From contig CAYRRP010000003.1 in the NCBI GenBank assembly GCA_964426735.1, forward strand, positions 77,378 through 141,377: a stretch of DNA of 64,000 bases. Direction: 5' to 3'. The notes beneath the pieces are model-generated. The model was not told the origin of the DNA. It saw only the letters and a list, made by a program, of their open reading frames with translations, and did no database searches. The position numbers and the translations under genes were made by a program. This DNA comes from an uncultured Candidatus Saccharibacteria bacterium (lineage in GTDB: Bacteria > Patescibacteriota > Minisyncoccia > Phycocordibacterales > DATDWN01). Positions 6,521-37,370 of the stretch are shown here, piece after piece (the first letter of the stretch is position 1; the number at the start of each line of letters is the position of its first letter).

Positions 6521-6754
6521 ATGAAAGATAACGGTACTGAAGACTTAGAGATGTTCCCTGAAGATCTCGAGTCAGATATTTTCTCAATTATGGGCTACTT
6601 AGCTCAGGAGCTATCGCCACACACCACGCCTGAAGGATTGGTTGAGAATTGTGCACGCGCAACAGGTGTCAGCCCACACTTTGTTCGCGAACTTCTTGTG
6701 GATTGCAGACGTGAATTTTTTAGCAAACTGGTTGTAAAAACACAAGCACCTTAA
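6521..6754 (+). CDS. Hypothetical small acidic protein
   Basis: 77 aa with a strong RBS (AAGGAG 7 nt upstream). No recognisable domain. Confidence 0.5.
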   Translation: MKDNGTEDLEMFPEDLESDIFSIMGYLAQELSPHTTPEGLVENCARATGVSPHFVRELLVDCRREFFSKLVVKTQAP

Positions 6755-8307
6755 TATCCCACAACCGAATCATCCCCTGAGCGTGGCTCCGCCACACTCA
6801 GGTTTTGTTTTTTATGAAAACGATAGAGAATGAAACCAAAAACTACATAACATACAACTAACCAAAACACAGGAATGTATGGTACATGAATATTTGCAAA
6901 CGGAAGTTTTGAAACACTTTCCGCAATAAATATATCCCACGAGAGAAGAAGATATGTTGGTATTCCTGGAATCAATCCCAAAAAACGTGAGACGAAGCCA
7001 GCTATCGCCGTACAGAAACCGAGAAGCATGGTCAGTGGTACAAATGGAAGTACGACAAAGTTTGCAGGAAATGCAAACACTCCAAAATTTCCAGACATGT
7101 ACACAATATATGGAAGCACAGAAAACTGAGCTCCCAGTGTGGTTGCAGACAATTCCCTTAGTCCATATTTTTCAGTAATAAAAGAAATATGTTTTAAAAC
7201 AATCGGTGCAACATACATCACACCAATAGTTGCTAACACAGATAGATGGAATGATGGATCATATAACAATATAAATGGATTCCACATAACCATCCCCCAT
7301 ACCGCAAGCAGTAGTGCACGTGACACATTGTACGTCTTATGGAATTGCTTCCCTAAAAGCGCAATACTCGCCATAATACCTGCGCGCACTGCTGAAGCTC
7401 CACTCCCTGCCATCAATACAAAAAATATAACACCAAAAAGTGATGCTCCAAATGCAAAACGTACTGACACATATTTCATTACCACCAAAATACTTTCAGC
7501 AACAACTGTAATGTTATACCCTGACAATACGATAATATGCGAAAGTCCTGCCGTCCTAAACTGATCTGTAATAGTTTTTGGTAATGCATCAGTCCCCAAC
7601 AAAATTCCCGCCAAAAGCCCTGCTTCCGGCTCAGGAACCACATTTCTGATTGACTCTACAAATCGACGCTTTAAACCAAAAAGTATCGTAAGGATACTCT
7701 TGCCCTCTTCTCCTATTTTCTTAATTGATGCAAAAGAGAGTGTGTGCGTAATAGAGTCTTTAAATAGATACATTTGATAATCAAACATTCTTCCATCATC
7801 CGCCTCGATGCGCCCAGGCACACGAAGTGTCCCCGTAGCCACGACATAATCACCGTACGAAAATTCTGGAAATGCATGTGTACTTAAAAGAACACGAGTA
7901 TCGACTTGTTTAGTGGTGCTCCCAAAAGAAACTTTATCTACACGAAGCATGACTTTCTGCTTTTCTCCATCGGAGACCGGCTCACGCACCACCACTCCAT
8001 GAAGGGCTATATTTTTTGATTCTTGTGTAGGTAGATTTTTTATATCAGGATAGGAAATCATAAACACACGCAGCTGACCGACACACAACCCAATAAAAAA
8101 TATAATCAAAAGATGGGAAACTTTTCGGACATCTTCTGTCTTGGAAAATTTTGCATACACACCAAGTACACCCGCACACAAGAAACACGCTACACACAAA
8201 GCAACAGAGAGATGTATGAATGAAACAGCAACCCCTACCAAACTGGAAATAAAAAACAGTAACATACTGTTACCGTTTCTTAAACTCACTGATAATATTC
8301 TGCTCAT
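6751..8307 (-). CDS. comEC: ComEC/Rec2 competence membrane channel (DUF4131 plus Competence domain), no MBL domain
   Basis: 518 aa polytopic membrane protein; ...LLAGILLGTDALPKTITDQFRTAGLSHIIVLSGYNITVV... is the ComEC competence-domain signature. Confidence 0.8.
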   Translation of the reverse strand: MSRILSVSLRNGNSMLLFFISSLVGVAVSFIHLSVALCVACFLCAGVLGVYAKFSKTEDVRKVSHLLIIFFIGLCVGQLRVFMISYPDIKNLPTQESKNIALHGVVVREPVSDGEKQKVMLRVDKVSFGSTTKQVDTRVLLSTHAFPEFSYGDYVVATGTLRVPGRIEADDGRMFDYQMYLFKDSITHTLSFASIKKIGEEGKSILTILFGLKRRFVESIRNVVPEPEAGLLAGILLGTDALPKTITDQFRTAGLSHIIVLSGYNITVVAESILVVMKYVSVRFAFGASLFGVIFFVLMAGSGASAVRAGIMASIALLGKQFHKTYNVSRALLLAVWGMVMWNPFILLYDPSFHLSVLATIGVMYVAPIVLKHISFITEKYGLRELSATTLGAQFSVLPYIVYMSGNFGVFAFPANFVVLPFVPLTMLLGFCTAIAGFVSRFLGLIPGIPTYLLLSWDIFIAESVSKLPFANIHVPYIPVFWLVVCYVVFGFILYRFHKKQNLSVAEPRSGDDSVVGY

Positions 8308-8962
8308 CCTCTGTGCTCACTGATTTTTTGAATAACGCACCTGACACACCGTTTACACGCGCTTTACACTCGTCCCAAGTTCTGTGTACCTCAACTACTC
8401 CTTTGACACAACTGACATATGAATATGCGGGGTGTGATTTTTTTGACGCACTCTTTTTTTCTTTAGACTCGATTGAACTTTCAACCTGCTCCACATCGAC
8501 ATCATACTGGTCGAGACTTCCTTCATATAGTTCCACAGGATTGTTATCTGCATATGAGGTAGCGATCACATCACATCGTTCATTTGCAGGCACACCAGCA
8601 TGCCCAGAAACTTTTCGAAACAACACTTCACGAGACGTGATTACCTGATCAAGTGCTTCCCACAAATCTCTGTTTAATACATCATCTTTAGTTTTTGTTT
8701 TCCAATTATTTTTTTTCCATCCTTCAATCCAAGAAGTGATACCTGAAATAAGGTAACTTGAATCGGTGTGCACAATCACCTCATCTGCTTTTGTGTATGT
8801 GAGTGCTTCGAGTACCGCAGTGAGTTCCATTCTGTTGTTGGTCGTATTTCCTTCACGACCACCGAGTTCGGTTACACGCTCACCTTCTACAATAACCGCA
8901 CCCCATCCCCCAAGTCCCGGATTTCCTCGTGACGAACCGTCTGTAAAAATAATTGCTTTCAT
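8270..8962 (-). CDS. rnhA: Ribonuclease HI with a C-terminal Cauli_VI-like hybrid-binding domain
   Basis: MKAIIFTDGSSRGNPGLGGWGAVI...NNRMEL...HTDSSY...GWKKNNWKT...GHAGVPANERCD is RNase H. The C-terminal ...YSYVSCVKGVVEVHRTWDECKARVNGVSGALFKKS resembles the RNase H1/viroplasmin hybrid-binding domain. Start placed at the internal ATG at 8962; the ORF-track start at 9136 lies upstream. Confidence 0.85.
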   Translation of the reverse strand: MKAIIFTDGSSRGNPGLGGWGAVIVEGERVTELGGREGNTTNNRMELTAVLEALTYTKADEVIVHTDSSYLISGITSWIEGWKKNNWKTKTKDDVLNRDLWEALDQVITSREVLFRKVSGHAGVPANERCDVIATSYADNNPVELYEGSLDQYDVDVEQVESSIESKEKKSASKKSHPAYSYVSCVKGVVEVHRTWDECKARVNGVSGALFKKSVSTEDEQNIISEFKKR

Positions 8963-9001
8963 AAAGTGTATTATAGCAGAGTTTAGATATGAAACAGCAT
9001 T

Positions 9002-9118
9002 CAGAAGTTGGTGAATATTATATTTAAGCCGTGTCTCGCAGGCTGACGAGCCGAGAGTCAGCGCTGGGCGAGCACGCACAGACAGCGACGGCGAAAAGAT
9101 AATATTCACCAACTTCTG
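9002..9118. repeat. Perfect 20-bp inverted repeats (CAGAAGTTGGTGAATATTAT) flanking a 77-bp GC-rich core
   Basis: Arms at 9002-9021 and 9099-9118 are exact reverse complements. The core is ~62% GC in a ~38% GC genome and contains the hairpin GCTGAC...GTCAGC and the motifs CUGACGA and GAAA. Confidence 0.6.
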
Positions 9119-9128
9119 TTTATATGCC

Positions 9129-10874
9129 CTACTCAATCACATCCACTATTCTCAACCGCAATTCAGGGAAGTTGCGAAACATCGACTTTTCTATGTGCGC
9201 AACCAGATTGATTTTCTGTCCCGCTTCCAGTGCAACACTGTATTTACTTGGGTCAGAAAAGAATCCAATTGCTTGGATAGTTTTACCATTCTTCTTGTGA
9301 AACGTAAGTTCAAGATGATTTTTTTCTTTTCCAAATTGTTTCAAACTGCTGATTACCACATCAGAAATCAGAAAAAGAGGCTTTGGATTGTCGATACCAT
9401 ATGGTGCAAGCTTCTCGACATGAGAATAGACATTCCAATCCACATCATCGATTGATATTTCTTTATCCACCACAACAGGTACTGGTTCACTTAGTTCATT
9501 ACGAAGCGCTTTAAATGAATCATTCAATTTTTTCTCAAGCTCATGAACTGTAGCAAGTGATACCGAAAATCCACCCGCACCCGCGTGTCCACCAAAATCA
9601 AGAAATGCATCTTTTGCATGTCCCATCAACTTCATAATATTTGTATCTCCACCTGCTCGACATGAACCTTTCAAAATCACATGTCCGTCTTCATCTTTCA
9701 TTTCTTCACCTGATCGTCCCCAGAGAAATACCGGGCGATTATGTTCATCACCAAATGAATTTGCAACCAGTCCAAGAAGTGATGGTTTCCATTTTGGATT
9801 ACCGAGCACTATCACATCACCGAGCACATCTTCTCGTTCAGAAATTATTTTTTTAATTTCTTTTACCATACTTGCCACCACTCCTTTGCGTTCATTATTG
9901 ATTGTATCTAAATGTTCTGCCATGATTCCTGCTTGTACCGGATCAGTTTCTCCAAGCATCAAAAATGCATCACGAGGGACACCCATGCGAGATGCGGCAT
10001 TGATACGCGGAGTGATCATAAAACCAATATCTTCTTCAGTGAGATGTGCTTGATTCATTTTTAAAATCTGACAGAGTTTTTGAAGACCTGGTCGTGGAGA
10101 CTTTCGCATCACATACAAACCATATGATGCGAGCACGCGGTTTTCTCCACGAAGTGGCACCATGTCAGATAATGTCGCGAGACCAACCATATCAAGAAGC
10201 CACTTCTCCCACCCTTCCACCACAGAATATCTTTTTTTAAATTCTTCATGTTGCAACAGTGCACACACAACTTTCCAAATCACTCCAGACCCACATAACA
10301 TTTTTTCTGGATACTGACATCCTGGTTGTTTTGGATTTATAATTGCATATGCACTTGGAAGTACTTCGTGTGGCAAGTGGTGGTCAGTAACAATCACATT
10401 CAGACCCTCTGAGTTTGCATACTCCACTTCACTTACATCTGCAATCCCACAATCAATAGTGATCACAAGCGTCACTCCATTTTTCTTAAAGAGATCAGTT
10501 GCATCATGACTCATACCGTACCCTTCATCATTTCGATGTGGAATATAAACCTCAAAATTTTCATAACCAATTTTTTTAAAAAAATCATTCATCACCACTG
10601 CACCAGGGATACCGTCTGCATCATAATCAGAAAAGATTCCAATCCGCTCCCCTGCTTCTAGCGCCCGAAGAATTCTCTCCACCGCTTTTCCCATATCTTT
10701 CAGCAGGTAGGGATCGTGAATGTCCCGATTGAAATCAGGAGCGATAAAAAGCTCTGCATCAGCATGTTCGGTAATTCCGCGAGCATGAAGAAGTTCTTGT
10801 AATATCGGATGATACGCTTTGAGATTTTCTCTGACTGCATCCACCAGCTTCTCCCGGACAACATAGTTTTTCAT
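9129..10874 (-). CDS. recJ: Single-stranded-DNA-specific exonuclease RecJ
   Basis: 581 aa; DHH-family motifs (GIFSDYDADGI, IVTDHHLP) plus a DHHA1 region. Confidence 0.9.
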   Translation of the reverse strand: MKNYVVREKLVDAVRENLKAYHPILQELLHARGITEHADAELFIAPDFNRDIHDPYLLKDMGKAVERILRALEAGERIGIFSDYDADGIPGAVVMNDFFKKIGYENFEVYIPHRNDEGYGMSHDATDLFKKNGVTLVITIDCGIADVSEVEYANSEGLNVIVTDHHLPHEVLPSAYAIINPKQPGCQYPEKMLCGSGVIWKVVCALLQHEEFKKRYSVVEGWEKWLLDMVGLATLSDMVPLRGENRVLASYGLYVMRKSPRPGLQKLCQILKMNQAHLTEEDIGFMITPRINAASRMGVPRDAFLMLGETDPVQAGIMAEHLDTINNERKGVVASMVKEIKKIISEREDVLGDVIVLGNPKWKPSLLGLVANSFGDEHNRPVFLWGRSGEEMKDEDGHVILKGSCRAGGDTNIMKLMGHAKDAFLDFGGHAGAGGFSVSLATVHELEKKLNDSFKALRNELSEPVPVVVDKEISIDDVDWNVYSHVEKLAPYGIDNPKPLFLISDVVISSLKQFGKEKNHLELTFHKKNGKTIQAIGFFSDPSKYSVALEAGQKINLVAHIEKSMFRNFPELRLRIVDVIE

Positions 10875-10993
10875 TGGTTAATTTTAACACAGCAATACAA
10901 ACAACCTCATTGACACACCTCTTTTAAAAGTAGTATGCATACTTTGACATATAAATATAAATATGGTTAAATTAATTTCGGAGGATCTTTTAC

Positions 10994-11731
10994 ATGCCCA
11001 ACGAACTGGTGGTACGCGAGCAACTTGCACTTACGATTACCAACCCGAGAGTGGTCCATATAGCACACCACCTCAGATGGAAACCTGTCACCACTATTGC
11101 TCGCATCGAACGAGCACTGCCATCAATCCTGGAGCAACAGATTTATCTTGCTATTGCACCAATGGTTGGTGAATCCGGACTCCTTCCGGAATCCCTCGCC
11201 AAACTCCTCAGAATATTTCTAGGGTCAAAGGAGCTTCGACTTGAAGATTTGACACCTGGATACCCAACCCAAAAAAACTTCGATGAATTTATTGAGTTTC
11301 TCGGTGAGTGCATCACCATTCTCAAAGTGATCAAGCACGAATATATAACGCTTGGTTTAAGTATAAATGATGCGGCACTGATTGTGCTTCGTTATGGAAC
11401 AAATGACCCTGAACGTCTTATTGAGATGGTAGACAACAACCTCGAGCAACTATGCGAAGTTCTTGATATCAGCAACAACATTCCGTACGGAACTCGTATG
11501 CGAGTCTGTCTGAATGTTGTCATCACAAAAGTGATACCAGGAAATCAAAAGAGCGGTGCTCCCGATCTACTCGATTTTACTGATTTCATTGAAATGGATT
11601 CCGTCAGGCGTCACCATATTCGCAAATGTGTACACCAAGAAATTGATGACCATCTTGCTTGTGATTTCCAAACTCTGAGAGGATATGATTCTCTCAAAAT
11701 ACTAAAAGAAGAAGGGATTGGTATTCTATGA
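10994..11731 (+). CDS. Hypothetical protein; first gene of a higher-GC two-gene cassette
   Basis: 245 aa with no recognisable motif. Local GC is ~50% versus ~38% in the flanks. Its stop overlaps the next start (ATGA). Confidence 0.55.
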   Translation: MPNELVVREQLALTITNPRVVHIAHHLRWKPVTTIARIERALPSILEQQIYLAIAPMVGESGLLPESLAKLLRIFLGSKELRLEDLTPGYPTQKNFDEFIEFLGECITILKVIKHEYITLGLSINDAALIVLRYGTNDPERLIEMVDNNLEQLCEVLDISNNIPYGTRMRVCLNVVITKVIPGNQKSGAPDLLDFTDFIEMDSVRRHHIRKCVHQEIDDHLACDFQTLRGYDSLKILKEEGIGIL

Positions 11732-12876
11732 GTGGTTTTCTCTCTGATTTAAAGATGTCTATTGCTAAGTCGCGAGAAGGTCCAAAACCATGGGGGGATG
11801 TTAATCCCCTCCTGCTTATAGGACTTTCCGACACCATTCTTAACCTTGGCCTTGATGAACAACAGCTACACGCCGTTGTGAAAAGCTATGGTAGGCAACT
11901 AACTGCTCAGGTACACCCTGATCGTCAGACGGTCAATATCTCTGACGAAATTCGAAAGCGAATCTTTGAAGGGTTTAATGCTATTGATGACTTTGGTCAC
12001 TTTCAGCTTGCCTTGAAAGAATTCCGATCCCTTCGTGCAGAAGATCGGCGGGAAAACAGAATACTTCACGAGGCGATATCTGCATTACAGCATCGTATTT
12101 CTTCCATAGAAGGCGATGCTTCAAAAATCAAGGAGGCAGCTCTCAAGCTCGAATCTGAAAAACAAGAGTTCTTACGCCTTAAGCGAGAGGAAAGCTTGAA
12201 ATTACCTGACCTTCAGAGATACTGCGAAGTTGCTAACAAAAGAATCGACGAACTAATCAAGCAAACCGAATCAACCCGAAAAACAGGTAATGCATGGAAG
12301 AGTCGTTTTTCAACAGCAATGAAATATATGCTGAATTTAGGCAACTTAAATCAACCTCATAAACTCTTTTTTGATGCACAATGGGTTGCAGTAGTCTCTT
12401 TGTGGCACCACGAAGGAAAACCTCTTACACCAGACGACATGATGTGGCGTCTCTTACTTGCACAAGACAAGGAGGTCTGTTCATTAGGTATCCCTTTAGA
12501 GACAATCATTGATCAGTGGCGGATAGCCAAAAGTCATTTTGGCAAACCAGAATTAACAGAATCAAAAAAGCTTCCGCTTTCACTGAGTATACTTAAACTA
12601 GACAAAGGGGTTCCGAGTCTGATATCTGGCGACAGCTTGACGGTGCATGGCGGTAAAGTTATAGGTTCGATTGATGGAAACAGCCACAAAATCACACGAG
12701 AGAACCTGTTTCAAAAGATGGATATTCTAGATATTCCTCGTCTGCTTACACCAACTATCGTACCGAACGGATTACTGGTATCTGTATCGGAACTTAAGGG
12801 AGTTAAAGCTTCTTGGAGTACCACTTGCCCTGGCTACAGGTTCCATACAAAGCGAATCATTGTGGCGGCGGGATAA
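11728..12876 (+). CDS. J-domain (DnaJ-like HPD motif) protein with a coiled-coil and an uncharacterised C-terminal domain
   Basis: 382 aa; LGLDEQQLHAVVKSYGRQLTAQVHPDRQ carries the HPD signature of J domains, followed by a charged coiled-coil region. Elevated GC. Confidence 0.6.
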   Translation: MSGFLSDLKMSIAKSREGPKPWGDVNPLLLIGLSDTILNLGLDEQQLHAVVKSYGRQLTAQVHPDRQTVNISDEIRKRIFEGFNAIDDFGHFQLALKEFRSLRAEDRRENRILHEAISALQHRISSIEGDASKIKEAALKLESEKQEFLRLKREESLKLPDLQRYCEVANKRIDELIKQTESTRKTGNAWKSRFSTAMKYMLNLGNLNQPHKLFFDAQWVAVVSLWHHEGKPLTPDDMMWRLLLAQDKEVCSLGIPLETIIDQWRIAKSHFGKPELTESKKLPLSLSILKLDKGVPSLISGDSLTVHGGKVIGSIDGNSHKITRENLFQKMDILDIPRLLTPTIVPNGLLVSVSELKGVKASWSTTCPGYRFHTKRIIVAAG

Positions 12877-12948
12877 AATTCACACACGTGAAGGATGTAA
12901 ATCCTCCACGTGTGTTTTGTTTTTTACAAGTGATATACTTTTACTATT

Positions 12949-13314
12949 ATGAATATGAATGATTGTATATTTTGCAAAATAGTTCGTGGAGAAATTCCTT
13001 CATACAAGGTGTATGAGGATGAACATTTTTTCGCCTTTTTGGATATTCACCCACAGTCCCCAGGACATGTACAAGTGATTCCCAAAAAGCACCACAGGTG
13101 GGTGTGGCAAGTTCCTAATGCTGGCGAGTACTTTGAGGTGGTACGGAAAATAGCTCTCGCCCAACAAAAAGCATTTAATACAGACTGGATACTTTCAAAA
13201 ATTGTCGGTGATGAAGTAGAGCATGCTCACATCTGGGTGTTTCCAAATAATGAAGTCTCTGGCGACCCGAAAGATTTTGAAGGAAACGTAAAGAAATTAA
13301 AAGATTATATATAA
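12949..13314 (+). CDS. HIT-family (histidine triad) hydrolase
   Basis: 121 aa; CIFCKI... and HAHIWVFP (HxHxHxx motif). Confidence 0.85.
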   Translation: MNMNDCIFCKIVRGEIPSYKVYEDEHFFAFLDIHPQSPGHVQVIPKKHHRWVWQVPNAGEYFEVVRKIALAQQKAFNTDWILSKIVGDEVEHAHIWVFPNNEVSGDPKDFEGNVKKLKDYI

Positions 13315-13489: not shown

Positions 13490-13807
13490 CTAGTCCTTAA
13501 TACCTTTTTCCATCTTCCAGATGGCACAGTTTTCTGGGGATCGTTCAAACTCAACCACCATCTCGACAACAGGTTGAGTCCCATCAGATGCCGGTGACTT
13601 AATACCTGTAATCCGCCAGAGTCGCTTTCCATCATCGAAAAAAAGAAAAACTAGGTTACGACCGACATTATGTTTCGTGGTGAGATTGGTATTTCCACAT
13701 GGTGACCAATCCATTTTTTCTCGTTTTTTTAGCTGGGCCGAATACCATACAGATTGAGCCAAAAATAATACAGCAGCAATAACAGCGAGCGGGCCAAAAG
13801 TTTTCAC
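13490..13807 (-). CDS. Hypothetical small secreted/membrane protein
   Basis: 105 aa; the N-terminal hydrophobic segment MKTFGPLAVIAAVLFLAQS. Confidence 0.45.
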   Translation of the reverse strand: MKTFGPLAVIAAVLFLAQSVWYSAQLKKREKMDWSPCGNTNLTTKHNVGRNLVFLFFDDGKRLWRITGIKSPASDGTQPVVEMVVEFERSPENCAIWKMEKGIKD

Positions 13808-15840: not shown

Positions 15841-15900
15841 CATAAGCATCACGAATGGACGTCCAACAAAAAAGTAGATGAAGTGATTTTACTGATGTTA
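15841..15900 (+). repeat. Degenerate partial copy (D) of the ~110-nt hairpin-repeat family
   Basis: ...CAACAAAAAAGTAGATGAAGTGATTTTACTG resembles the 3' arm of copy A (CAACAAAGCAGATGAAGTGATTTTATTG). Confidence 0.35.
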
Positions 15901-17379
15901 TCTTGTCTCTTCCCAAGAAATGATTTGGTATTGATCTGATGTCAATGGAAAACTCGGAGGCGGCCCGTACAATAAGTTGGCATCATAAATAATATCTCGA
16001 CTGTCGTATCCTGTACCGTCTGTGTATGCAAAACCGTATCGTAAACTACTTGCAATCATTCCGTACAGTGTCAATGAAGCTTTACTGTCATCCGAACATG
16101 ATGTTTCGTAATAATACCTTCCTGCACGTCCATTTTGTGCAACAAGTGCCGCATCTATACGAAGATTATTTGCTGAATACTGACCAACGTTTACGTTACC
16201 TTGCGATATAAGAGAGATTACATCTCGTCCATCATAATTTGTATATAATAAATTTGCATTGATTGTAATACTTGGTCGTGTTGCAGGGTTATCTGGGAAA
16301 CGTCCTACTGCAAGCGTCACACGAGCAGTATCAATCTGTCCATCTACCCACACATTATCTTCAAGGAAAATCAATCCATTCGAAGGAATCGCATAATTAC
16401 CGAGCAGTGTCTGCCCTCCTCCACCAGATGTTCGTATACTCCATGAACCCCACCCTGTTTGATTTTGCACATTAGAACAATTATTACCCACAGACTGAAG
16501 TGCAGTAACTCGATACAAATCAAACGTATCATTTGTTTTAAATACTACACGATACCCTTGATACCCTGATGCAGCAAAATATCTTCCTCCTGTTTGTGCA
16601 CCTGATTTAATTGACGCGAGATCAGTCGTCAATCCAACAAAATCAACCGCCGGAAGCGGAAATTGTCTACCTGATTCAAATACATCAGGTCGAGCAGGTA
16701 CACTATTTGGTGGTGCTTCGGCAGAACGAAACGTATCATTCACAGTACCACCTGGCAATGTTACGTGAGTATGCACTCCAAACTCATTGTTTCCTGAATG
16801 ATCAGGGTCATCATATACATCTCGCGAAGACGAAATAACGTTGTGAGCAAGTCCGTCAAAACGAATTCCACCGTTTGAGTGAATAGGGCCATAGACTTCA
16901 GTACCCTCTCCAAATCGAAGACTGTCATTGCTTACCACTGCATATTTTGCGAGAGATGGAATTGCAAAACGAGCAGTAATTGACCGCGCAACAGAAGGAT
17001 CATCGGTGATACGTCCAGTTGATTTTACAGTCACAATAGTAAACCCTGGTTGTGGTGGAGTAATCTCAAGAGTAAAGGAGCCAATCTGATTTCCATCTTT
17101 ATCATAAAATGGACGCACAGAAGGTGTGCTTGTACCAGTACCATCCTGATAGTCAGTCGGTGCATGTGCAAGATGCCATCGATAATAATCGACTCCAGAT
17201 TCTGCAATTTGAAGGGCTTGCTCTCTATACAATGCAAGACGTGACGCTTTAATATTTAATCCTGCCCAAGAAACCAGTCCTCCAATAATCACAACTGCAA
17301 TACTTCCAAACACAAGTGCTTGAACAAGAAGAGAACCTTTTTGTAGTTGGTATCCAGTAGTGGTGTGTATCTTTTTCAT
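15898..17379 (-). CDS. Pilus-associated protein (N-terminal TM anchor, PilX/minor-pilin-like), in an operon with pilins
   Basis: 493 aa; N-terminal hydrophobic helix then a Gly/Thr/Asn-rich extracellular region. 4-bp overlap with the downstream pseudopilin gene. Confidence 0.55.
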   Translation of the reverse strand: MKKIHTTTGYQLQKGSLLVQALVFGSIAVVIIGGLVSWAGLNIKASRLALYREQALQIAESGVDYYRWHLAHAPTDYQDGTGTSTPSVRPFYDKDGNQIGSFTLEITPPQPGFTIVTVKSTGRITDDPSVARSITARFAIPSLAKYAVVSNDSLRFGEGTEVYGPIHSNGGIRFDGLAHNVISSSRDVYDDPDHSGNNEFGVHTHVTLPGGTVNDTFRSAEAPPNSVPARPDVFESGRQFPLPAVDFVGLTTDLASIKSGAQTGGRYFAASGYQGYRVVFKTNDTFDLYRVTALQSVGNNCSNVQNQTGWGSWSIRTSGGGGQTLLGNYAIPSNGLIFLEDNVWVDGQIDTARVTLAVGRFPDNPATRPSITINANLLYTNYDGRDVISLISQGNVNVGQYSANNLRIDAALVAQNGRAGRYYYETSCSDDSKASLTLYGMIASSLRYGFAYTDGTGYDSRDIIYDANLLYGPPPSFPLTSDQYQIISWEETR

Positions 17380-17990
17380 AAATTATCTTTAAGATTACGC
17401 AGTGTTGCTGTGGTAGTCACTATAAGTGGTATTGGTGTTTTATTTGGATCTTTCTCAATAACCAACGTGATCTTTACCATGCGAATATTTGAAATCACTA
17501 CAGGTTGAGTAAGTGGTGATGTAGTTCCAGCAAATGTACTTGGATAATACGTAAACAAAGTTGTTGTTGCACTATTTGCAATATGCGAAACAACTGAAGA
17601 AACTTTTTCATTTGCCTCTACATATGCAAGTGGACTACCAGTTGGAGATAACTCTCCACGGCGAAGGGTTGTGCCGGACATAAAATACCGTATTCTTTCT
17701 TTATTCCCATCATTATTAATATCGCTATAAAAAGTTAACGCGGACGAACTTGCAACAGTTATAGGATATCCTCCAAGAGAAGATGGTGATGCTTCTCGCA
17801 ATTCAGCAACCATCTTTTTAATCACATGACGTGCATCAAGTTGTGCAGACAAACTATTTTGAGCAGAGAAATTTAAGGTAAAAATGTCACGCTGAAATGT
17901 TCCGACCGCAAGTGCAAGTAGGCCAATAATCGCAGAACTCACAACTATTTCAACAAGAGTGACACCTTGTGTATATTTCATATTATTCAC
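17376..17990 (-). CDS. Type IV pilin-like / pseudopilin (prepilin N-terminal methylation motif)
   Basis: 204 aa; N-terminus KYTQGVTLVEIVVSSAIIGLLA (GFTLIE-like class III signal). Confidence 0.7.
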   Translation of the reverse strand: MNNMKYTQGVTLVEIVVSSAIIGLLALAVGTFQRDIFTLNFSAQNSLSAQLDARHVIKKMVAELREASPSSLGGYPITVASSSALTFYSDINNDGNKERIRYFMSGTTLRRGELSPTGSPLAYVEANEKVSSVVSHIANSATTTLFTYYPSTFAGTTSPLTQPVVISNIRMVKITLVIEKDPNKTPIPLIVTTTATLRNLKDNL

Positions 17991-19782
17991 TTACCAGTAT
18001 AACATCTTGTAACTTCCAACTACTGTTAACAATGAGTGGAATCGTCTGAGTTTCATAACCTGTTTTAGTCACCCGAAGACTATATGTACCATCTGAAAGA
18101 CCTGTAAACACCACTTGACCTGGTGGAGTACATGAAGCGGTAAATGTAAATGCAATATCAGAAATATTCGGTGAACGACTCGTATCATCTGTATGGAGGT
18201 AGAGTTTGTATCTTAAATAACGTTTACCACTCGCCGATGAATGTATCGTACGGTTTGCAGTTGTGAAGTAGGTTGCATTTGTACCATCTGGCCCTACATA
18301 ATCCCATGTACCACCATCATCGTTTGTTGCAATCTGAAAACGTACAGCATTTGCACCCGTACTTGTCGCCTGATCCATCGGAGACCATACGATTTCTTGA
18401 AAATTTGAAACTCCGCCAGTATCAAAAGAAGATGATGTCAATGTTCCATCTGTTTGATACTGTCCGAGAATATATTTTAATGTTAAATCACCTGCTGGAT
18501 TATTGATTTCTATATTTCCATCACTACTTAAATACTGTGACATATTTGTTGATGTTGCTTGTCCTCCACCTGATGACCAGTTTGTTTGTACTAAAGAACC
18601 TTTACCGGTCACACGTGTTGCCAACACAGCACCACCAGAAGAAAGGAGTTCAACTGTAGCATCAGCAAGTGGTAGTGATGAAGCACTATCACGTACAGCC
18701 ACCAGTACTGTCTCTGGATCTTTTGGTGCAACAACAAGATCTACTTGTTGTGATGCGTCAGGGGAAAGCAAAAAAGAAATGAGAGGGTTTGCTCCAATCA
18801 AATCATACGTTCCTGATGTCATGGCGAGTGCGTAAGTATCCCACTCCATATTCGACAAAGAGACAGAACCTGAACCACCTGTTGAGTGACTCTGATCATA
18901 TTTAAGAATCACAGGGTTTGTTCCAATTGTTTTTGTGCCTGTTAAGGTGATTGGTATATTGGTTACTGTTGTACAGTTTGATGCGAAACTATTTACAGAT
19001 AATGTACTCAACTCATCAATAATAAAACTCTGCGCTGTTACTTGTTGCAACACCACGGTTGCATGAGGTTTGGTTGGGTTTGGGTTTGCAACCGTAATCG
19101 GATAGGTGCGTTCAGTAGAATACCCTGATTTAGTAACGGTAATTTCATATGCATTAATACCTGGAGGAGCGTCCACGATAGCGAGCAATCCATCATTATT
19201 GGTCACGTCATCAATCGAGATCGTACTTGTGGCACTATTGTTCTCTATATGCACACTTGCTTGTGGTACAGGATTGCCGTTTGCATCAAACACACGAATA
19301 AACAATGCTCCATTTGTTGATGCAGTTTCAAGACTTTTAGGAGCAACTCGTGATGTTACACTCACGGGTTTAAAATTACGACACAATACACATCCGATTT
19401 CTATTTCAACAACCTTAGAATCTGCGGGCGAAAGGTCATTTGGACTACCGCCAAGCGTTCCATCAAATGGATCATCAAAATTTCGTACTGTAGTCGTGGC
19501 GATAAATGTCGTCCCGTCTCGAACCAACGTCTGCACATGAGTCAACAAACCATCCGGAATACCTCCATCAATACCCACACTTGCATACGGAAGATTTTTT
19601 ACAATTTCCAACTGTTCGTTTGCCAAGTCGATAGCAGCAATCTTTTGTCGTGACACAGATACTGCTTGGTAAATAGAAGTATATGCATTGTATACACCAA
19701 CAATAATAATGGTAAACACAGAAACCCCCACCAGAAGCTCTATAAGCGTAAAACCTTTTTTATTTTTGATGTAATTTTGCAT
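17983..19782 (-). CDS. Large type IV pilin-like protein (599 aa) with a prepilin leader
   Basis: N-terminus MQNYIKNKKGFTLIELLVGVSVFTIII (canonical prepilin motif), then a long Thr/Ser/Asn-rich beta-rich region. Confidence 0.7.
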   Translation of the reverse strand: MQNYIKNKKGFTLIELLVGVSVFTIIIVGVYNAYTSIYQAVSVSRQKIAAIDLANEQLEIVKNLPYASVGIDGGIPDGLLTHVQTLVRDGTTFIATTTVRNFDDPFDGTLGGSPNDLSPADSKVVEIEIGCVLCRNFKPVSVTSRVAPKSLETASTNGALFIRVFDANGNPVPQASVHIENNSATSTISIDDVTNNDGLLAIVDAPPGINAYEITVTKSGYSTERTYPITVANPNPTKPHATVVLQQVTAQSFIIDELSTLSVNSFASNCTTVTNIPITLTGTKTIGTNPVILKYDQSHSTGGSGSVSLSNMEWDTYALAMTSGTYDLIGANPLISFLLSPDASQQVDLVVAPKDPETVLVAVRDSASSLPLADATVELLSSGGAVLATRVTGKGSLVQTNWSSGGGQATSTNMSQYLSSDGNIEINNPAGDLTLKYILGQYQTDGTLTSSSFDTGGVSNFQEIVWSPMDQATSTGANAVRFQIATNDDGGTWDYVGPDGTNATYFTTANRTIHSSASGKRYLRYKLYLHTDDTSRSPNISDIAFTFTASCTPPGQVVFTGLSDGTYSLRVTKTGYETQTIPLIVNSSWKLQDVILVSE

Positions 19783-19809
19783 TTTTATCTTCTCGAATAA
19801 TTACGAACC

Positions 19810-19923
19810 AATAAAATTGCTTTAGGTGCGCGGCGCAAGAAGGTTTTGGAGCGAGCCTTACTTGTCGTAAGGCAAGTGGCAAAACTTGAATTGCAACAAA
19901 GCAGATGAAGTGATTTTATTGTG
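19810..19923 (+). repeat. Copy A of the ~110-nt hairpin-repeat family
   Basis: Terminal inverted segments AATAAAATTGC...GTGATTTTATT and the central hairpin CCTTAC-TTGTC-GTAAGG. Homologous to 39031-39139 and 40303-40410 with compensatory changes. Confidence 0.6.
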
Positions 19924-19930
19924 TTCGCGG

Positions 19931-21145
19931 TTAGATTGCATCAGCAAGACTATACGTAGGAGCAAGCATTGAAATAGCAAATATTCCCACCGCTGCACCG
20001 ATCACAATCATAAGCACAGGTTCAATCACAGAAGACATGTCTTTTGTCTTCTGATCTACTTCATCCTCATAAAACTGAGCTACTCCAACCAACATATCCC
20101 CTATTTTTCCTGTTTCCTCACCTACCGAAACCATTTCTCCTACGAAAATAGGGTAAAGATCTTCATGTTTTAAAAAGATTGCAGACATTAATTCTCCTTT
20201 CTGAATCACCTGCTCAATATTATCAAGCACAGCTTTATAATAGGTATTTTGAATAACCTCTTTTGTGACAGAAATAGCGACCACAATATCCACACCTGAG
20301 CTAATAAGTGACGAGAGTGTACGTGCGGTACGTGCCGAATTAACTTGTTTTACAATATCTCCAATCACGGGAGTATGTAATGCAACATAATCAGATAATC
20401 GTTTTCCTTTTGTTGTTCTTAATCCATAATATACACCTGCACACAAAGCAATTACTCCACCAATCATCACGAGAAAATAGTCTTTCATGATATCACTGAT
20501 ACCAATAATGATTCGTGTAGACAACGGGAGCTTAATACCGAGACCTTTAAACGTTTCTGTGAGTGTTGGAACCATGTATACCATCATCAATACACCGATC
20601 ACCGCCATCAGAGAAAAAATAACTGCAGGATACATCATTGCTCCTTTGATTTTCTTATTCAACTGATATGTCTTTTCCATCTGGTTTGAAATATTCTTGA
20701 GTGCAAGAATAAGGTTTCCAGATTCTTCACCTGCACGCACCATTGAAATAAACAAGGTTGAAAATACCTCTGGATAGGCCTTCATTGCTTCAGAGAGAGT
20801 AACACCTTTACTGATTTCTTCTTCAAGAGAGGTGAGGATTTTTTTAAACTGACCTTTTGACTGCCTGCCCATAATAGATATTGCTCGAGTAATCGGAAGT
20901 CCTGCCTCAATCATAGAAGAAAGATTTCGTGCAAACACGATCTTGTCATGAGTTTTTACTTTTCCTGAAAATGGCATCGAAAAAGATCCTGAGAAAAACT
21001 TTTGAGTATGTACTTCGGATGACGAAAGCACCTGTCCCCCTTCTTTTTTTATATCTCTATATAAAGAAAATTTATCGGGAGCTTCTTTTACTCCTTCATA
21101 TTCTTTACCTTCTGCATCAATTGCTTTGTATTTATATTGTGACAT
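19931..21145 (-). CDS. pilC: Type IV pilus assembly platform protein PilC (GspF family)
   Basis: 404 aa; two T2SS-F domains and three TM segments. Confidence 0.9.
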   Translation of the reverse strand: MSQYKYKAIDAEGKEYEGVKEAPDKFSLYRDIKKEGGQVLSSSEVHTQKFFSGSFSMPFSGKVKTHDKIVFARNLSSMIEAGLPITRAISIMGRQSKGQFKKILTSLEEEISKGVTLSEAMKAYPEVFSTLFISMVRAGEESGNLILALKNISNQMEKTYQLNKKIKGAMMYPAVIFSLMAVIGVLMMVYMVPTLTETFKGLGIKLPLSTRIIIGISDIMKDYFLVMIGGVIALCAGVYYGLRTTKGKRLSDYVALHTPVIGDIVKQVNSARTARTLSSLISSGVDIVVAISVTKEVIQNTYYKAVLDNIEQVIQKGELMSAIFLKHEDLYPIFVGEMVSVGEETGKIGDMLVGVAQFYEDEVDQKTKDMSSVIEPVLMIVIGAAVGIFAISMLAPTYSLADAI

Positions 21146-21188
21146 ATATATTAAAACTGATGATTTACAAATTTGTAAATCATATTAT

Positions 21189-22940
21189 TTATTCTGAAAT
21201 TACACGAAGCACCTCTTCTATTGTAGTTGTACCTTGTACAGCCTGAAAAATACCATCTTCAATCATAGTGAGCATACCTTCTTTTTCTGCCTGTTTTTGT
21301 ATTTCATCTGCAGTTCCACCTTTCATAATAATTTCCTTAATCGCTGGTGATACTTTTAATATTTCATGGATACCTGCTCGTCCACCATATCCATCAGCAT
21401 CAGCAGTACCCTTCTTTGGTCTAAAGAATGGTATTTTTTCCCAATTATCACTTTTGCCAATTATTTTTTCAGCACGAAGTGCCTCGGCGATTTTATCAAG
21501 ATTTACCGACTTACCAAGAGTGTCGACTTCAGACTTTGTAAGAAAATATTTTTCTTTTGATTCTTCAGTTAACCGTCGCACCAAACGCTGCGCAATAATA
21601 ATATTGATAGTCGACACAAGCAAAAATGGCTCAACTTTCATATCGATAAGACGAGGAATAGCTCCTGCAGCACTGTTGGTGTGCAAGGTTGAGAGCACCA
21701 CGTGTCCTGTCAGTGATGCATTGATTGCTAGAGACGCTGTTTCATTATCTCGAATCTCTCCCACCATAATAATATCCGGGTCTTGTCGTACAAGTGTTCG
21801 AAGTCCTGAAGAAAACGTAAACCCTATTTCTGGACGAACCTGTGTCTGATTAATACGTTTCATCTGATATTCCACCGGGTCCTCGATAGTTGAGATGTTT
21901 ACATCAGGAGTATTGAGCATATCGAGAATAGTATAGAGAGTTGTAGTTTTACCAGATCCTGTAGGACCTGTAGTCAAAATCATTCCTGTTGTTGATTTGA
22001 TTGCTTTATGAATACGCTCAAGACCTTCTCCATGAAAATGAAGTTTCTCGAGAGTAAAGCCTGATACGGTTTCTCGAAGTAAACGCATTACGGTCTTTTC
22101 TCCATAATATGTCGGGAGTGTTGAGACACGAAAAGATACTTTCTCACCGTTCATATCAATCTTAAAACGACCATCTTGAGGAAGACGCTTTTCATCGAGC
22201 TTGAGACTTGCGAGCACTTTTATACGAGCACTAATAGACGGCGCAACATTTTTAGGTAGCACCATCGCATCATGAAGCAGACCATCAATACGGTATCGTA
22301 CCAAAAGCTCTGTTTCCATCGGCTCAATATGAATATCGGATGCATCTTGCAAGATTGCATGTTTCAAAAGCGTATCAACAATACGCACCACTGGCACATC
22401 ATCTGCCAATTTTTTCAAATCACTTTCTGAAACATCTTCCTCTAAATCCTCAACTTTTTTAAGAGAAAGGGCGTCCTTTTGAATCAGATCACCAAACTCA
22501 GCCTTCAAACTTTTTTGATACTGCAACAGTGCTGATTTCATTGATTCCCCATCAGTAAGACGTGGAAGAATTTTAAGACCTACCTTCTTTTTAACGAAAT
22601 CAATAGCTGTCAAATCTTCAGTATCAAGCATCGCTACCTCAAGTGCAGTGTCTGTTTTTTTGAATGCAACAATATTATGGTTGCGTGCGATAGGTTCTGG
22701 GATCAATGAGAGGACTTCAAAATCAAGTTTTTCACCCTTCAAGTCAACAAAGGGGATACCGAGAATATATGCTTGCATTCGACGAAGGTCATCTTCCGTT
22801 AGTTTACCTTTACTCACCAATATCTTCCCCAACCCTTCACCTGATTCTTCACCTTCTTTGGCCGCAGCAGTAACCTCAGCACGAGATACAAGACCTGAGT
22901 CAATAATGAAATCTTTAAGTTGTGTTTCTTCAATGTGCAT
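21189..22940 (-). CDS. pilB: Type IV pilus assembly ATPase PilB (GspE family)
   Basis: 583 aa; Walker A GPTGSGKTTTLY and the GspE N-terminal domain. Confidence 0.9.
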   Translation of the reverse strand: MHIEETQLKDFIIDSGLVSRAEVTAAAKEGEESGEGLGKILVSKGKLTEDDLRRMQAYILGIPFVDLKGEKLDFEVLSLIPEPIARNHNIVAFKKTDTALEVAMLDTEDLTAIDFVKKKVGLKILPRLTDGESMKSALLQYQKSLKAEFGDLIQKDALSLKKVEDLEEDVSESDLKKLADDVPVVRIVDTLLKHAILQDASDIHIEPMETELLVRYRIDGLLHDAMVLPKNVAPSISARIKVLASLKLDEKRLPQDGRFKIDMNGEKVSFRVSTLPTYYGEKTVMRLLRETVSGFTLEKLHFHGEGLERIHKAIKSTTGMILTTGPTGSGKTTTLYTILDMLNTPDVNISTIEDPVEYQMKRINQTQVRPEIGFTFSSGLRTLVRQDPDIIMVGEIRDNETASLAINASLTGHVVLSTLHTNSAAGAIPRLIDMKVEPFLLVSTINIIIAQRLVRRLTEESKEKYFLTKSEVDTLGKSVNLDKIAEALRAEKIIGKSDNWEKIPFFRPKKGTADADGYGGRAGIHEILKVSPAIKEIIMKGGTADEIQKQAEKEGMLTMIEDGIFQAVQGTTTIEEVLRVISE

Positions 22941-36673: not shown

Positions 36674-37027
36674 ACATATATAGTATACAAGCTTAATCCT
36701 TTCACGTGTAACTATATTATATGTTACATATGTAACATATAATATTTGAGTAGGTACAGGAGGATTCGTAGTATAAAGTACACAATTTCCTTTGTATAAA
36801 GCCATTTTTGGAGACTTTTGGACACAAAGTCTTATACTTTGAAGCCTGTCAAAGACTGTCTCTAATACACATGTCCACAGACTTATCCACAGTTTTCAAC
36901 ATATTTTGTGTAAAACTGACTTTAATTTAAAGACTTTGTCCCACAGAATAGGGGTTTAATGGAGACAGTCCGTGATCAAATAGACAAAACTTGGCAAAAG
37001 CTAGAAAAAAGGTATGATACATATATT

Positions 37028-37101
37028 GCACCCGTAGCTCAATTGGATAGAGTATTTGTCTTCGGAACAAAGGGTTGCAGGTTCGAGTCCTGCCGGGTGC
37101 A
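37028..37101 (+). tRNA. tRNA-Arg (anticodon UCG)
   Basis: GCACCCG-TA-GCTCAATTGGATAGAGT-A-TTTGT-CTTCGGA-ACAAA-GGGTT-GCAGG-TTCGAGT-CCTGC-CGGGTGC-A. 74 nt. Confidence 0.88.
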
Positions 37102-37106
37102 CACGA

Positions 37107-37135
37107 CAAAAAATCCCAACTGCTTGGGATTTTTT
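37107..37135 (+). terminator. Intrinsic terminator after tRNA-Arg
   Basis: AAAAAATCCCA-ACTGC-TTGGGATTTTTT. Confidence 0.6.
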
Positions 37136-37148
37136 GCTACGTGTGCAC

Positions 37149-37290
37149 AACGGAGACATGTTTTTTCAGCAGAAAAAAAGGTCGAGTTGTGGACCGAAGG
37201 AAATTTCAATTCGACGGAATTGAAATTATCCGAAGTGTACAAGACAAAACCCTATGTATTTGAATTTCTCCCCACTTTGTGTAAAATGAA
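37149..37290 (+). ncRNA. Degenerate third member (el4) of the tRNA-Gly-associated structured element family, just upstream of tRNA-Gly(GCC)
   Basis: ACGGAG...TTTTTT-CAGCAG-AAAAAAA...GGTCGAG...AAATTTCAATTC-GACG-GAATTGAAATT...TTTCTCCCC. The GACG-loop hairpin and flanking motifs are homologous to el2 with compensatory substitutions. Confidence 0.35.
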
Positions 37291-37296
37291 GGGGAA

Positions 37297-37367
37297 GCGG
37301 CTATGGTTTAGTGGTAGAACACGTCCTTGCCAAGGATGAGATTCGGGTTCGATTCCCGGTAGCCGCA
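37297..37367 (+). tRNA. tRNA-Gly (anticodon GCC)
   Basis: GCGGCTA-TG-GTTTAGTGGTAGAAC-A-CGTCC-TTGCCAA-GGATG-AGAT-TCGGG-TTCGATT-CCCGG-TAGCCGC-A. 71 nt. Confidence 0.9.
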
Positions 37368-37370
37368 CAG

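Follow-up and report, generated by a model that had tools for sequence, protein, structure and literature searches.

What do two overlapping genes between recJ and a HIT-family gene do in an uncultured Candidatus Saccharibacteria bacterium, and how did they come to be there? The genes, here denoted A and B, are located in a stretch of 64,000 nucleotides (nt) of contig CAYRRP010000003.1 (assembly GCA_964426735.1, positions 77,378 to 141,377); the whole of this 64-kb stretch is called the window below. An earlier interpretation made from the letters alone (the sequence-only reading) placed two open reading frames (ORFs) with an ATGA overlap in the recJ/HIT spacer, and both are present there, on the plus strand, at exactly the coordinates that it gave. 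It further described B as a J-domain protein, A as a protein without recognisable motifs, and the pair as a horizontally acquired candidate for an Hsp70-hijacking toxin or defence module. As shown below, the gene structure and the J domain stand, the pair is an old resident operon, and B may well be a co-chaperone dedicated to A.

The family of B was collected by an exhaustive HMMER search with a family profile, which returned 187 clusters (at 50% identity), 64 of them with E≤1e-30, and 116 full-size representatives were used for the counts of domains and of the His-Pro-Asp (HPD) triad. Individually, 55 of these 116 members match the Pfam DnaJ family (PF00226), the best at 8e-6; apart from coiled-coil noise, it is the only family that recurs. 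An N-terminal profile of 50 sequences, spanning window residues 20–104 with the window protein as the first row, was compared with the PDB sequences. It retrieves 70 of them at E≤1, and all 60 listed are J-domain proteins (JDPs): the top match is E. coli DnaJ (6.5e-6), and human DNAJB1 and DNAJA1, Ydj1, CbpA and Sis1 are also found. Helix II, the HPD triad and helix III are in register with the J domains of the PDB. Judged from these alignments, the J domain of B is real but divergent. The sequence-only reading was right about the domain and its HPD triad at residues 63–65, but the domain is not clear, as had been stated: it is detectable only with family profiles.

The J domain has a family-specific N-terminal extension, which the canonical J domains aligned with it lack; N26, P27, L28 and G32 of this extension are at least 90% conserved among the 116 representatives. 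K52, R56 and R66 of B align with R22, K26 and R36 of DnaJ, which belong to the basic helix-II and HPD surface in the DnaJ–DnaK complex 5NRO; R56 and R66 are invariant in close homologues, and position 52 is always K or R. The HPD triad itself is invariant in the 11 closest homologues and occurs in 85 of the 116 representatives (73%), with its H and D conserved in at least 90%. The frequency of other triads is unusually high for a J-domain family.

The rest of B contains nothing of a typical DnaJ. Pfam gives no DnaJ_C or DnaJ_CXXCXGXG match in window B, and neither family is among the 25 most matched by the 116 members. Since B lacks a glycine/phenylalanine-rich (G/F) region, a zinc finger and DnaJ_C, and its J domain runs straight into a coiled coil, it is by sequence a class-C JDP. 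The coiled coil, an antiparallel hairpin in the AlphaFold2 (AF2) model, is opened by the invariant motif F..AL..F..L.AEDRRE, and in Pfam, NCBIfam and the PDB it attracts only noise of the coiled-coil type. The C-terminal alpha/beta domain has no PDB or Pfam match, as assessed by a sub-profile of 26 sequences. Foldseek matches of B to proteasome subunits were rejected as noise (root-mean-square deviation, rmsd, 12–20 Å; probability ≤0.04), and scans of window B against Pfam, NCBIfam, PADLOC and PHROGs return only noise (Syntaxin, ASRP, MkoC). Hence a long coiled coil followed by a C-terminal domain without motifs, as proposed from the sequence alone, is borne out by the AF2 model and the profile searches, the domain being about 170 amino acids (aa) long.

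This C-terminal domain is not universal. Natural short forms of B, 265–300 aa, consist of the J domain and the coiled coil only and have a full-length A as their partner. They are found at L009 6822–7622 (the same as in L010 and L013), L014 6001–6834 (the same as L030 7723–8556) and L015 1305–2201. In these loci the stop codon is followed by a hairpin resembling a terminator, and the downstream sequence holds no trace of the C-terminal domain in any of its frames. Because of these short forms, the invariant core of the system is A with the J domain and the coiled coil of B, the C-terminal domain being optional.

Protein A is an orphan. Its AF2 model is all-helical, with 14 helices (pLDDT, the per-residue model confidence, 73.6; pTM, the predicted template-modelling score, 0.62). 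Profile searches yielded 55 homologues (29 in the first round), all of 195–273 aa and none with a Pfam domain. Window A has no significant match in Pfam, NCBIfam, PADLOC or PHROGs; the Fes1 match in the family library scans (E 0.31) is insignificant. Comparison of the model with the PDB and BFVD by Foldseek gives nothing below E 1.6, and profiles of the full length, the N-terminal half and the C-terminal half give nothing credible among PDB sequences, the best matches, none of them credible, being the PAK CRIB domain (E 0.57), DNA primase (E 0.31) and Dad4 (E 0.04). The absence of a recognisable motif, noted in the sequence-only reading, is thus confirmed by library, profile and fold searches. 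In a Pfam scan of 28 close and 10 distant homologues, scattered single-member matches to helix-turn-helix (HTH) families (E 0.07–0.2) and weak DAO_C matches (E≥0.003) were seen. They are too weak for an HTH assignment; the three N-terminal helices of A could form an HTH, and we take this as a hint only. The conserved cysteines were considered as a metal site and discarded, as they are not conserved in distant homologues. The mean column identity is 61% for A (28 sequences) and 53% for B (11 closer sequences), that is, A is more conserved than B.

The two genes are strictly paired. Applied to the ORFs of the retrieved loci, the A and B profiles showed one and the same order in all of about 25 distinct loci, the A homologue being the immediate upstream neighbour of the B homologue; two more loci are cut by the contig end, and the statement applies to loci with sequence available. 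Where the genes had been called by the source pipelines, A and B overlap by 1–8 nt. Even the distant B-like proteins (453–496 aa, about 20% identical), which share only the N-terminal 120 residues or so, plus a remodelled C-terminus, are preceded by genes matching the A profile (2.4e-45 and 6.6e-32). Persistence of the pairing down to about 20% identity fits an ancient resident pair.

The local signals agree with this arrangement. A promoter-like site and a Shine-Dalgarno (SD) sequence precede A, an intrinsic terminator follows B, and the HIT gene has a separate promoter-like site (Table 1). Hence A–B is a discrete, self-contained bicistronic unit. The number of promoter-like sites in the region does not exceed that expected by chance in a consensus scan, so the site preceding A is only a plausible promoter. 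The terminator is stronger: the hairpin has a folding energy of -22.1 kcal/mol (z = -6.4), and none of 200 shuffled sequences folds as well. A GA-rich run comparable to that in the window is situated 7–13 nt ahead of the B start in nearly all of 16 loci compared. With the ATGA overlap, this SD-like run upholds the initial description of the pair as translationally coupled.

The Glu-Glu-Gly codons at the conserved C-terminus of A at the same time form the SD-like sequence for B, a possible dual constraint on protein and RNA. The SD-like run probably contributes to conservation of the C-terminal "...KEEG(I/L)(I/L)" of A. Accordingly, EEG was dropped as a candidate peptide motif, its conservation being at least partly explained by the embedded SD sequence.

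Table 1. Features of the A–B locus; positions are those of the window, and residues are those of the protein named
Feature	Position	Strand	Basis or remark
Gene A	10994–11731	+	ORF, 245 aa; predicted all-helical orphan protein
Gene B	11728–12876	+	ORF, 382 aa; class-C J-domain protein
ATGA overlap, 4 nt (start codon of B, stop codon of A)	11728–11731	+	Read from sequence
recJ, 5' neighbour	9129–10874	-	Pfam (DHH, DHHA1 and RecJ_OB domains)
HIT-family gene, 3' neighbour	12949–13314	+	
Promoter-like site ahead of A (TTGACA, 18 nt spacer, TAAATT)	10944–10973	+	Consensus scan, 10/12 matches
Shine-Dalgarno sequence GGAGGA, 8 nt 5' of the ATG of A	10980–10985	+	Read from sequence
SD-like purine-rich run GAAGAAGGGA within the last codons of A (K-E-E-G), 10 nt 5' of the B start	11708–11717	+	
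Intrinsic terminator: 14-pair (9 + 5) hairpin with one internal mismatch, then UUUGUUUUUU	12882–12925	+	RNA fold
Promoter-like site of the HIT gene, separate	12923–12950		Consensus scan
A, conserved N-terminal half, residues 12–88	11027–11257	+	
A, C-terminal tail, residues 218–245			Predicted disordered
B, family-specific N-terminal extension of the J domain (residues 21–35, PWGDVNPLxxIGL)	11788–11832	+	Alignment of 116 representatives
B, divergent J domain, residues ~36–100 (helix I ILNLGL, helix II 44–61, HPD 63–65, helix III 73–86, start of helix IV)	11833–12027	+	
B, HPD codons H63-P64-D65, between predicted helices 44–61 and 73–86	11914–11922	+	
B, antiparallel coiled-coil hairpin, ~115 residues, helices 89–154 and 162–205	11992–12342	+	AF2 secondary structure
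B, orphan C-terminal alpha/beta domain, residues 210–382	12355–12873	+	AF2, pLDDT ~85–90

J domains bind Hsp70 in its ATP state by a region made up of helix II, HPD and helix III and trigger hydrolysis. We favour, with moderate confidence, a model in which B is a class-C co-chaperone with a dedicated task: it would bring A, or whatever A holds, to DnaK to be remodelled. Given the established role of J domains, B would engage DnaK: its J domain (helix II, HPD 63–65, helix III) would dock on ATP-state DnaK (Hsp70) and trigger ATP hydrolysis, and DnaK would then clamp whatever is held beside the J domain. Obligate co-encoding and translational coupling suggest that A and B are in physical contact in a stoichiometric complex, with the coupling providing a fixed A:B ratio. 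Protein A might be the dedicated client or specificity subunit presented by B, since its conservation exceeds that of B, it never occurs without B and there are parallels in HscB–IscU and AtcJ–AtcC. The coiled-coil hairpin could act as a spacer, mediate oligomerisation or provide a binding platform, and the C-terminal alpha/beta domain would be an accessory module, as the natural short forms exist without it.

By analogy, the pair may work like known systems built on class-C JDPs (HscB–IscU, AtcJ–AtcC and, counted with them here, CbpA–CbpM). Like B, HscB of the HscB–IscU system (class C, or type III, JDP and its client) has a J domain with HPD, has neither the G/F region nor the zinc finger nor the DnaJ-type C-terminal domains, and consists for the remainder of a family-specific module. 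IscU, the client, is more conserved than its recruiter HscB, the same pattern as in A and B. On the other hand, the sequences are related in the J domain only, B has the hairpin of about 115 residues and the orphan alpha/beta domain, and no specialised Hsp70 such as HscA is encoded near the pair.

A parallel in gene organisation is provided by Shewanella AtcJ, an operon-encoded class-C JDP that binds AtcC, a partner of no known function, with nanomolar affinity (PMC6715715). Here, too, a bacterial class-C JDP shares an operon with proteins without recognisable domains, the synteny is conserved with few nucleotides between the genes, and AtcC is bound by the non-J part of AtcJ (PMC6715715). However, AtcJ is short (the J domain and 21 residues) and is the first of four genes, whereas B has 382 aa and is the second of two, overlapping its partner. 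The phyla are different, and A is set beside the Atc proteins by description only.

The E. coli cbpA–cbpM operon, like the pair, has two genes, for a J protein and a small partner acting on it, and the N-terminus of B finds one of its best structural matches in the CbpA J domain (3ucs). In contrast to B, CbpA belongs to class B of the JDPs, has DnaJ-type C-terminal domains and binds DNA, and CbpM has about 100 aa and is encoded downstream, whereas A has 245 aa, is encoded upstream and is unrelated to CbpM by profile search. Canonical DnaJ (class A) differs as well: its G/F linker, CxxCxGxG zinc finger and DnaJ_C domain are all absent in B, which has the extra conserved N-terminal extension and a J domain too divergent for Pfam.

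Several observations weigh against B as a co-chaperone of DnaK. No ORF of the window carries the Hsp70 signature DLGT[TS], and no Hsp70 gene adjoins the pair in any locus. Window B alone has no match to PF00226 even at E≤1. In the AF2 model of B (pLDDT 77.8 overall) the J region has only 54–79, and, while the top Foldseek matches in the PDB are J domains (2cug, 3ucs_C and 2ctp; TM-score, TMt, 0.44–0.51; rmsd about 4 Å), their E-values are weak, 0.5–1.6. The short forms argue against the C-terminal domain as a universal A-binding site. Finally, HPD is absent in 31 of the 116 representatives (27%), being replaced by HSD (10), HED (9), HTD (6), SPD (2), NEQ (2), HRD (1) and HPR (1); the variants include close full-length members, P0047 and P0056 (both SPD) and P0059 (HTD). 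The only non-HPD class that has been quantified, HPE, makes up about 1% of known JDPs (PMC10410713). As the 31 of 116 are far above this value, some members of the family may not stimulate Hsp70.

The non-HPD triads, some of them in close full-length members, also bear on a different reading, that of a J-like domain co-opted for an Hsp70-independent role: the complex of A and B, built on the coiled coil, would be structural or regulatory, and the fold or contacts with partners, not stimulation of the ATPase, would be what keeps the HPD loop. The most conserved residues of the family include NPLxxIGL and F..AL..F..L.AEDRRE, both outside the canonical DnaK-binding surface, and 2cug, among the top structural matches, is a "pseudo DnaJ" J domain; both facts fit such a role. 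We nevertheless regard it as unlikely, as H and D are conserved in at least 90% and HPD is retained in 73% of the representatives and in all close relatives, the basic positions equivalent to R22, K26 and R36 of DnaJ are kept, and genuine J domains of DnaJ lead the sequence matches. Somewhat less likely still is that A is a CbpM-like modulator, binding the J domain of B or its flanks and gating the access of DnaK. A stoichiometric complex is suggested here as well by the pairing in an operon and the coupled translation, the dispensability of the C-terminal domain places the likely contact with A in the N-terminal half of B, where the flanks of the J domain are unusually conserved, and the CbpA J domain–CbpM complex (3ucs) is among the top structural matches of B. 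However, A has neither sequence nor fold similarity to CbpM, and profiles of A (full length and either half) failed to retrieve the CbpM chains of 3ucs at E≤10. The cbpA–cbpM gene order is the reverse of A–B, A is about 2.5 times the size of CbpM, and A being more conserved than B would be unusual for a mere regulator.

The remaining alternative, a horizontally acquired toxin or anti-phage defence module hijacking Hsp70, was suggested by the company that B keeps, a stand-alone J-domain protein beside a protein of no recognisable kind, and by composition. The latter is mildly atypical in the window. The sequence-only reading gave 48–52% GC for the pair and about 38% for its neighbours; the measured values are 43.4% for A and 43.2% for B, against 39.3% for the window, 41.0% for recJ and 38.8% for the HIT gene, and no 300-nt stretch inside the pair exceeds 47%. 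With the 54 long ORFs of the window as the reference, the pair is 4 points above the window in GC, about +1.5 standard deviations (sd), and GC at third codon positions (GC3) is 0.39 for A and 0.38 for B, compared to 0.30 ± 0.06, again about +1.5 sd. The fit to the synonymous codon usage of the window is -1.8 sd for A and -2.3 sd for B. The comparison of GC3 and codon usage thus finds a deviation that is real but mild, about 1.5 to 2.3 sd. Among the few ORFs with a worse codon fit is 36959–37339 (126 aa), which overlies tRNA-Arg (37028–37102) and tRNA-Gly (37297–37368) and hence is almost certainly not a gene.

Other genomes bear on the origin of the pair. L004, a contig of a Minisyncoccota metagenome-assembled genome (MAG), shares with the window a colinear block of at least 17 kb, which runs M50 peptidase, L28, lactamase_B, SOD, ComEC, RNase H, RecJ, A, B, HIT, PGK, TIM, pilin-like genes, T2SSF, T2SSE, and the pair occupies the same position between recJ and the HIT gene. 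Identity between the window and L004 is 75% for A, 53% for B and 61–84% for 14 flanking orthologues; thus A is inside the range of the flanking genes, and B is the fastest-evolving gene of the colinear block. In ten loci the GC content of the pair tracks that of the host locus, from 38% (34% in the rest) up to 57–61% (56% in the rest), with pair-minus-host offsets from -2.9 to +8 points. Such tracking is the signature of long residence, and the family as such shows a small excess in AT-rich genomes. All named sources of homologues are Minisyncoccota/Minisyncoccia or "Candidatus Saccharibacteria" MAGs. As the pair is colinear with L004 and its GC tracks the host, it is an old, vertically inherited, resident operon specific to the ultra-small Minisyncoccota, or Patescibacteria of the Candidate Phyla Radiation (CPR). 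Horizontal acquisition is contradicted by this synteny and by the adaptation of composition to each host, and its GC basis is absent from the sequence; the colinearity with L004 is moreover the kind of conservation in related genomes that the sequence-only reading had itself named as evidence against its proposal.

Outside the lineage of the window and L004, the pair is found in about 14 other neighbourhoods, which are variable and consist mostly of housekeeping or unannotated genes: CysRS/CorA/DnaB/RecR, ParB/L28/M50 peptidase, S10/EF-Tu, TrpRS or TyrRS with L21, GluRS, LexA/DinB/FtsZ, PPDK, the DNA polymerase III clamp loader and a RecN-like ATPase. No neighbour recurs across the loci compared. 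In this check of the neighbourhoods, proposed along with the defence hypothesis, the pair proved to be always together, while defence genes were seen only near the pair of L003, a distant locus, where a restriction-modification (R-M) system and a reverse transcriptase (RT)-protease gene are located 2.7–5 kb upstream. Those genes (L003 20–3036) encode an N6_N4 methyltransferase, a MjaV-type restriction enzyme and a reverse transcriptase-trypsin fusion of 530 aa, likely a defence cluster unrelated to the pair. PADLOC gives nothing for A and only coiled-coil noise for B (MkoC, E 0.019, 11 bits), there is no PHROG match, and neither family occurs on the viral contigs scanned. No mobility genes flank the pair in the window. 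With its neighbours elsewhere being tRNA synthetases, ribosomal proteins, DnaB, ParB, the clamp loader and PPDK, and with strict pairing that is ancient and neither patchy nor island-like, a toxin or defence module is highly improbable.

Some features near the pair deserve mention. In the window, a 105-aa minus-strand ORF (13490–13807) is situated in the 528-nt gap between the HIT gene and PGK. It has no equivalent in L004, where these genes are 30 nt apart, and the segment may be lineage-specific or non-coding. The minus-strand cluster 15898–22940, colinear with L004, comprises two unannotated genes (493 and 204 aa) and genes for a large pilin-like protein (N_methyl), T2SSF and a T2SSE/MshEN ATPase; by appearance it is an apparatus of the type IV pilus kind, and ComEC (6751–8307) is close by. 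The RNase H ORF (8270–9136) has a weak motif of the RNase H1 N-terminal (Cauli_VI) type at its C-terminus, residues 250–271, the reverse of the usual order; its TTG start is probably set too far upstream, as the orthologue in L004 has 229 aa. In L005, a free-standing LAGLIDADG_3 homing-endonuclease gene (9731–10279) is located near parB, downstream of the pair.

Many class-C JDPs without known function have already been described, so that B as such is not surprising. Literature searches for J-domain proteins in CPR/Patescibacteria gave nothing relevant, and no description was found of this arrangement, in which an extended J domain, a coiled-coil hairpin and an optional orphan alpha/beta domain come with an overlapping upstream orphan. 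Apart from the HPD variants and the unannotated family, the locus is an ordinary conserved resident gene pair, and not an island or a defence system. Pfam thresholds miss about half of the members of the B family, and the high rate of non-HPD triads bears on how strict the HPD rule is.

The CPR/Patescibacteria are minimal, episymbiotic cells with tiny genomes full of lineage-specific proteins without known function. It is possible, and we put this forward tentatively, that A and B are subunits of an ancient machine restricted to the Patescibacteria, made of two or three folds without detectable relatives and with a J-like domain that has partly escaped the HPD rule. If so, DnaK would be coupled to a lineage-specific process by an unusual J–Hsp70 interface, or the module would be independent of Hsp70; in either case the J-domain systems would gain a new family, one that lacks annotation in the present domain databases. 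The J domain offers experiments a way to approach the function of an orphan protein. A dedicated Hsp70-targeting operon retained over wide divergence in reduced genomes would point to an indispensable process.

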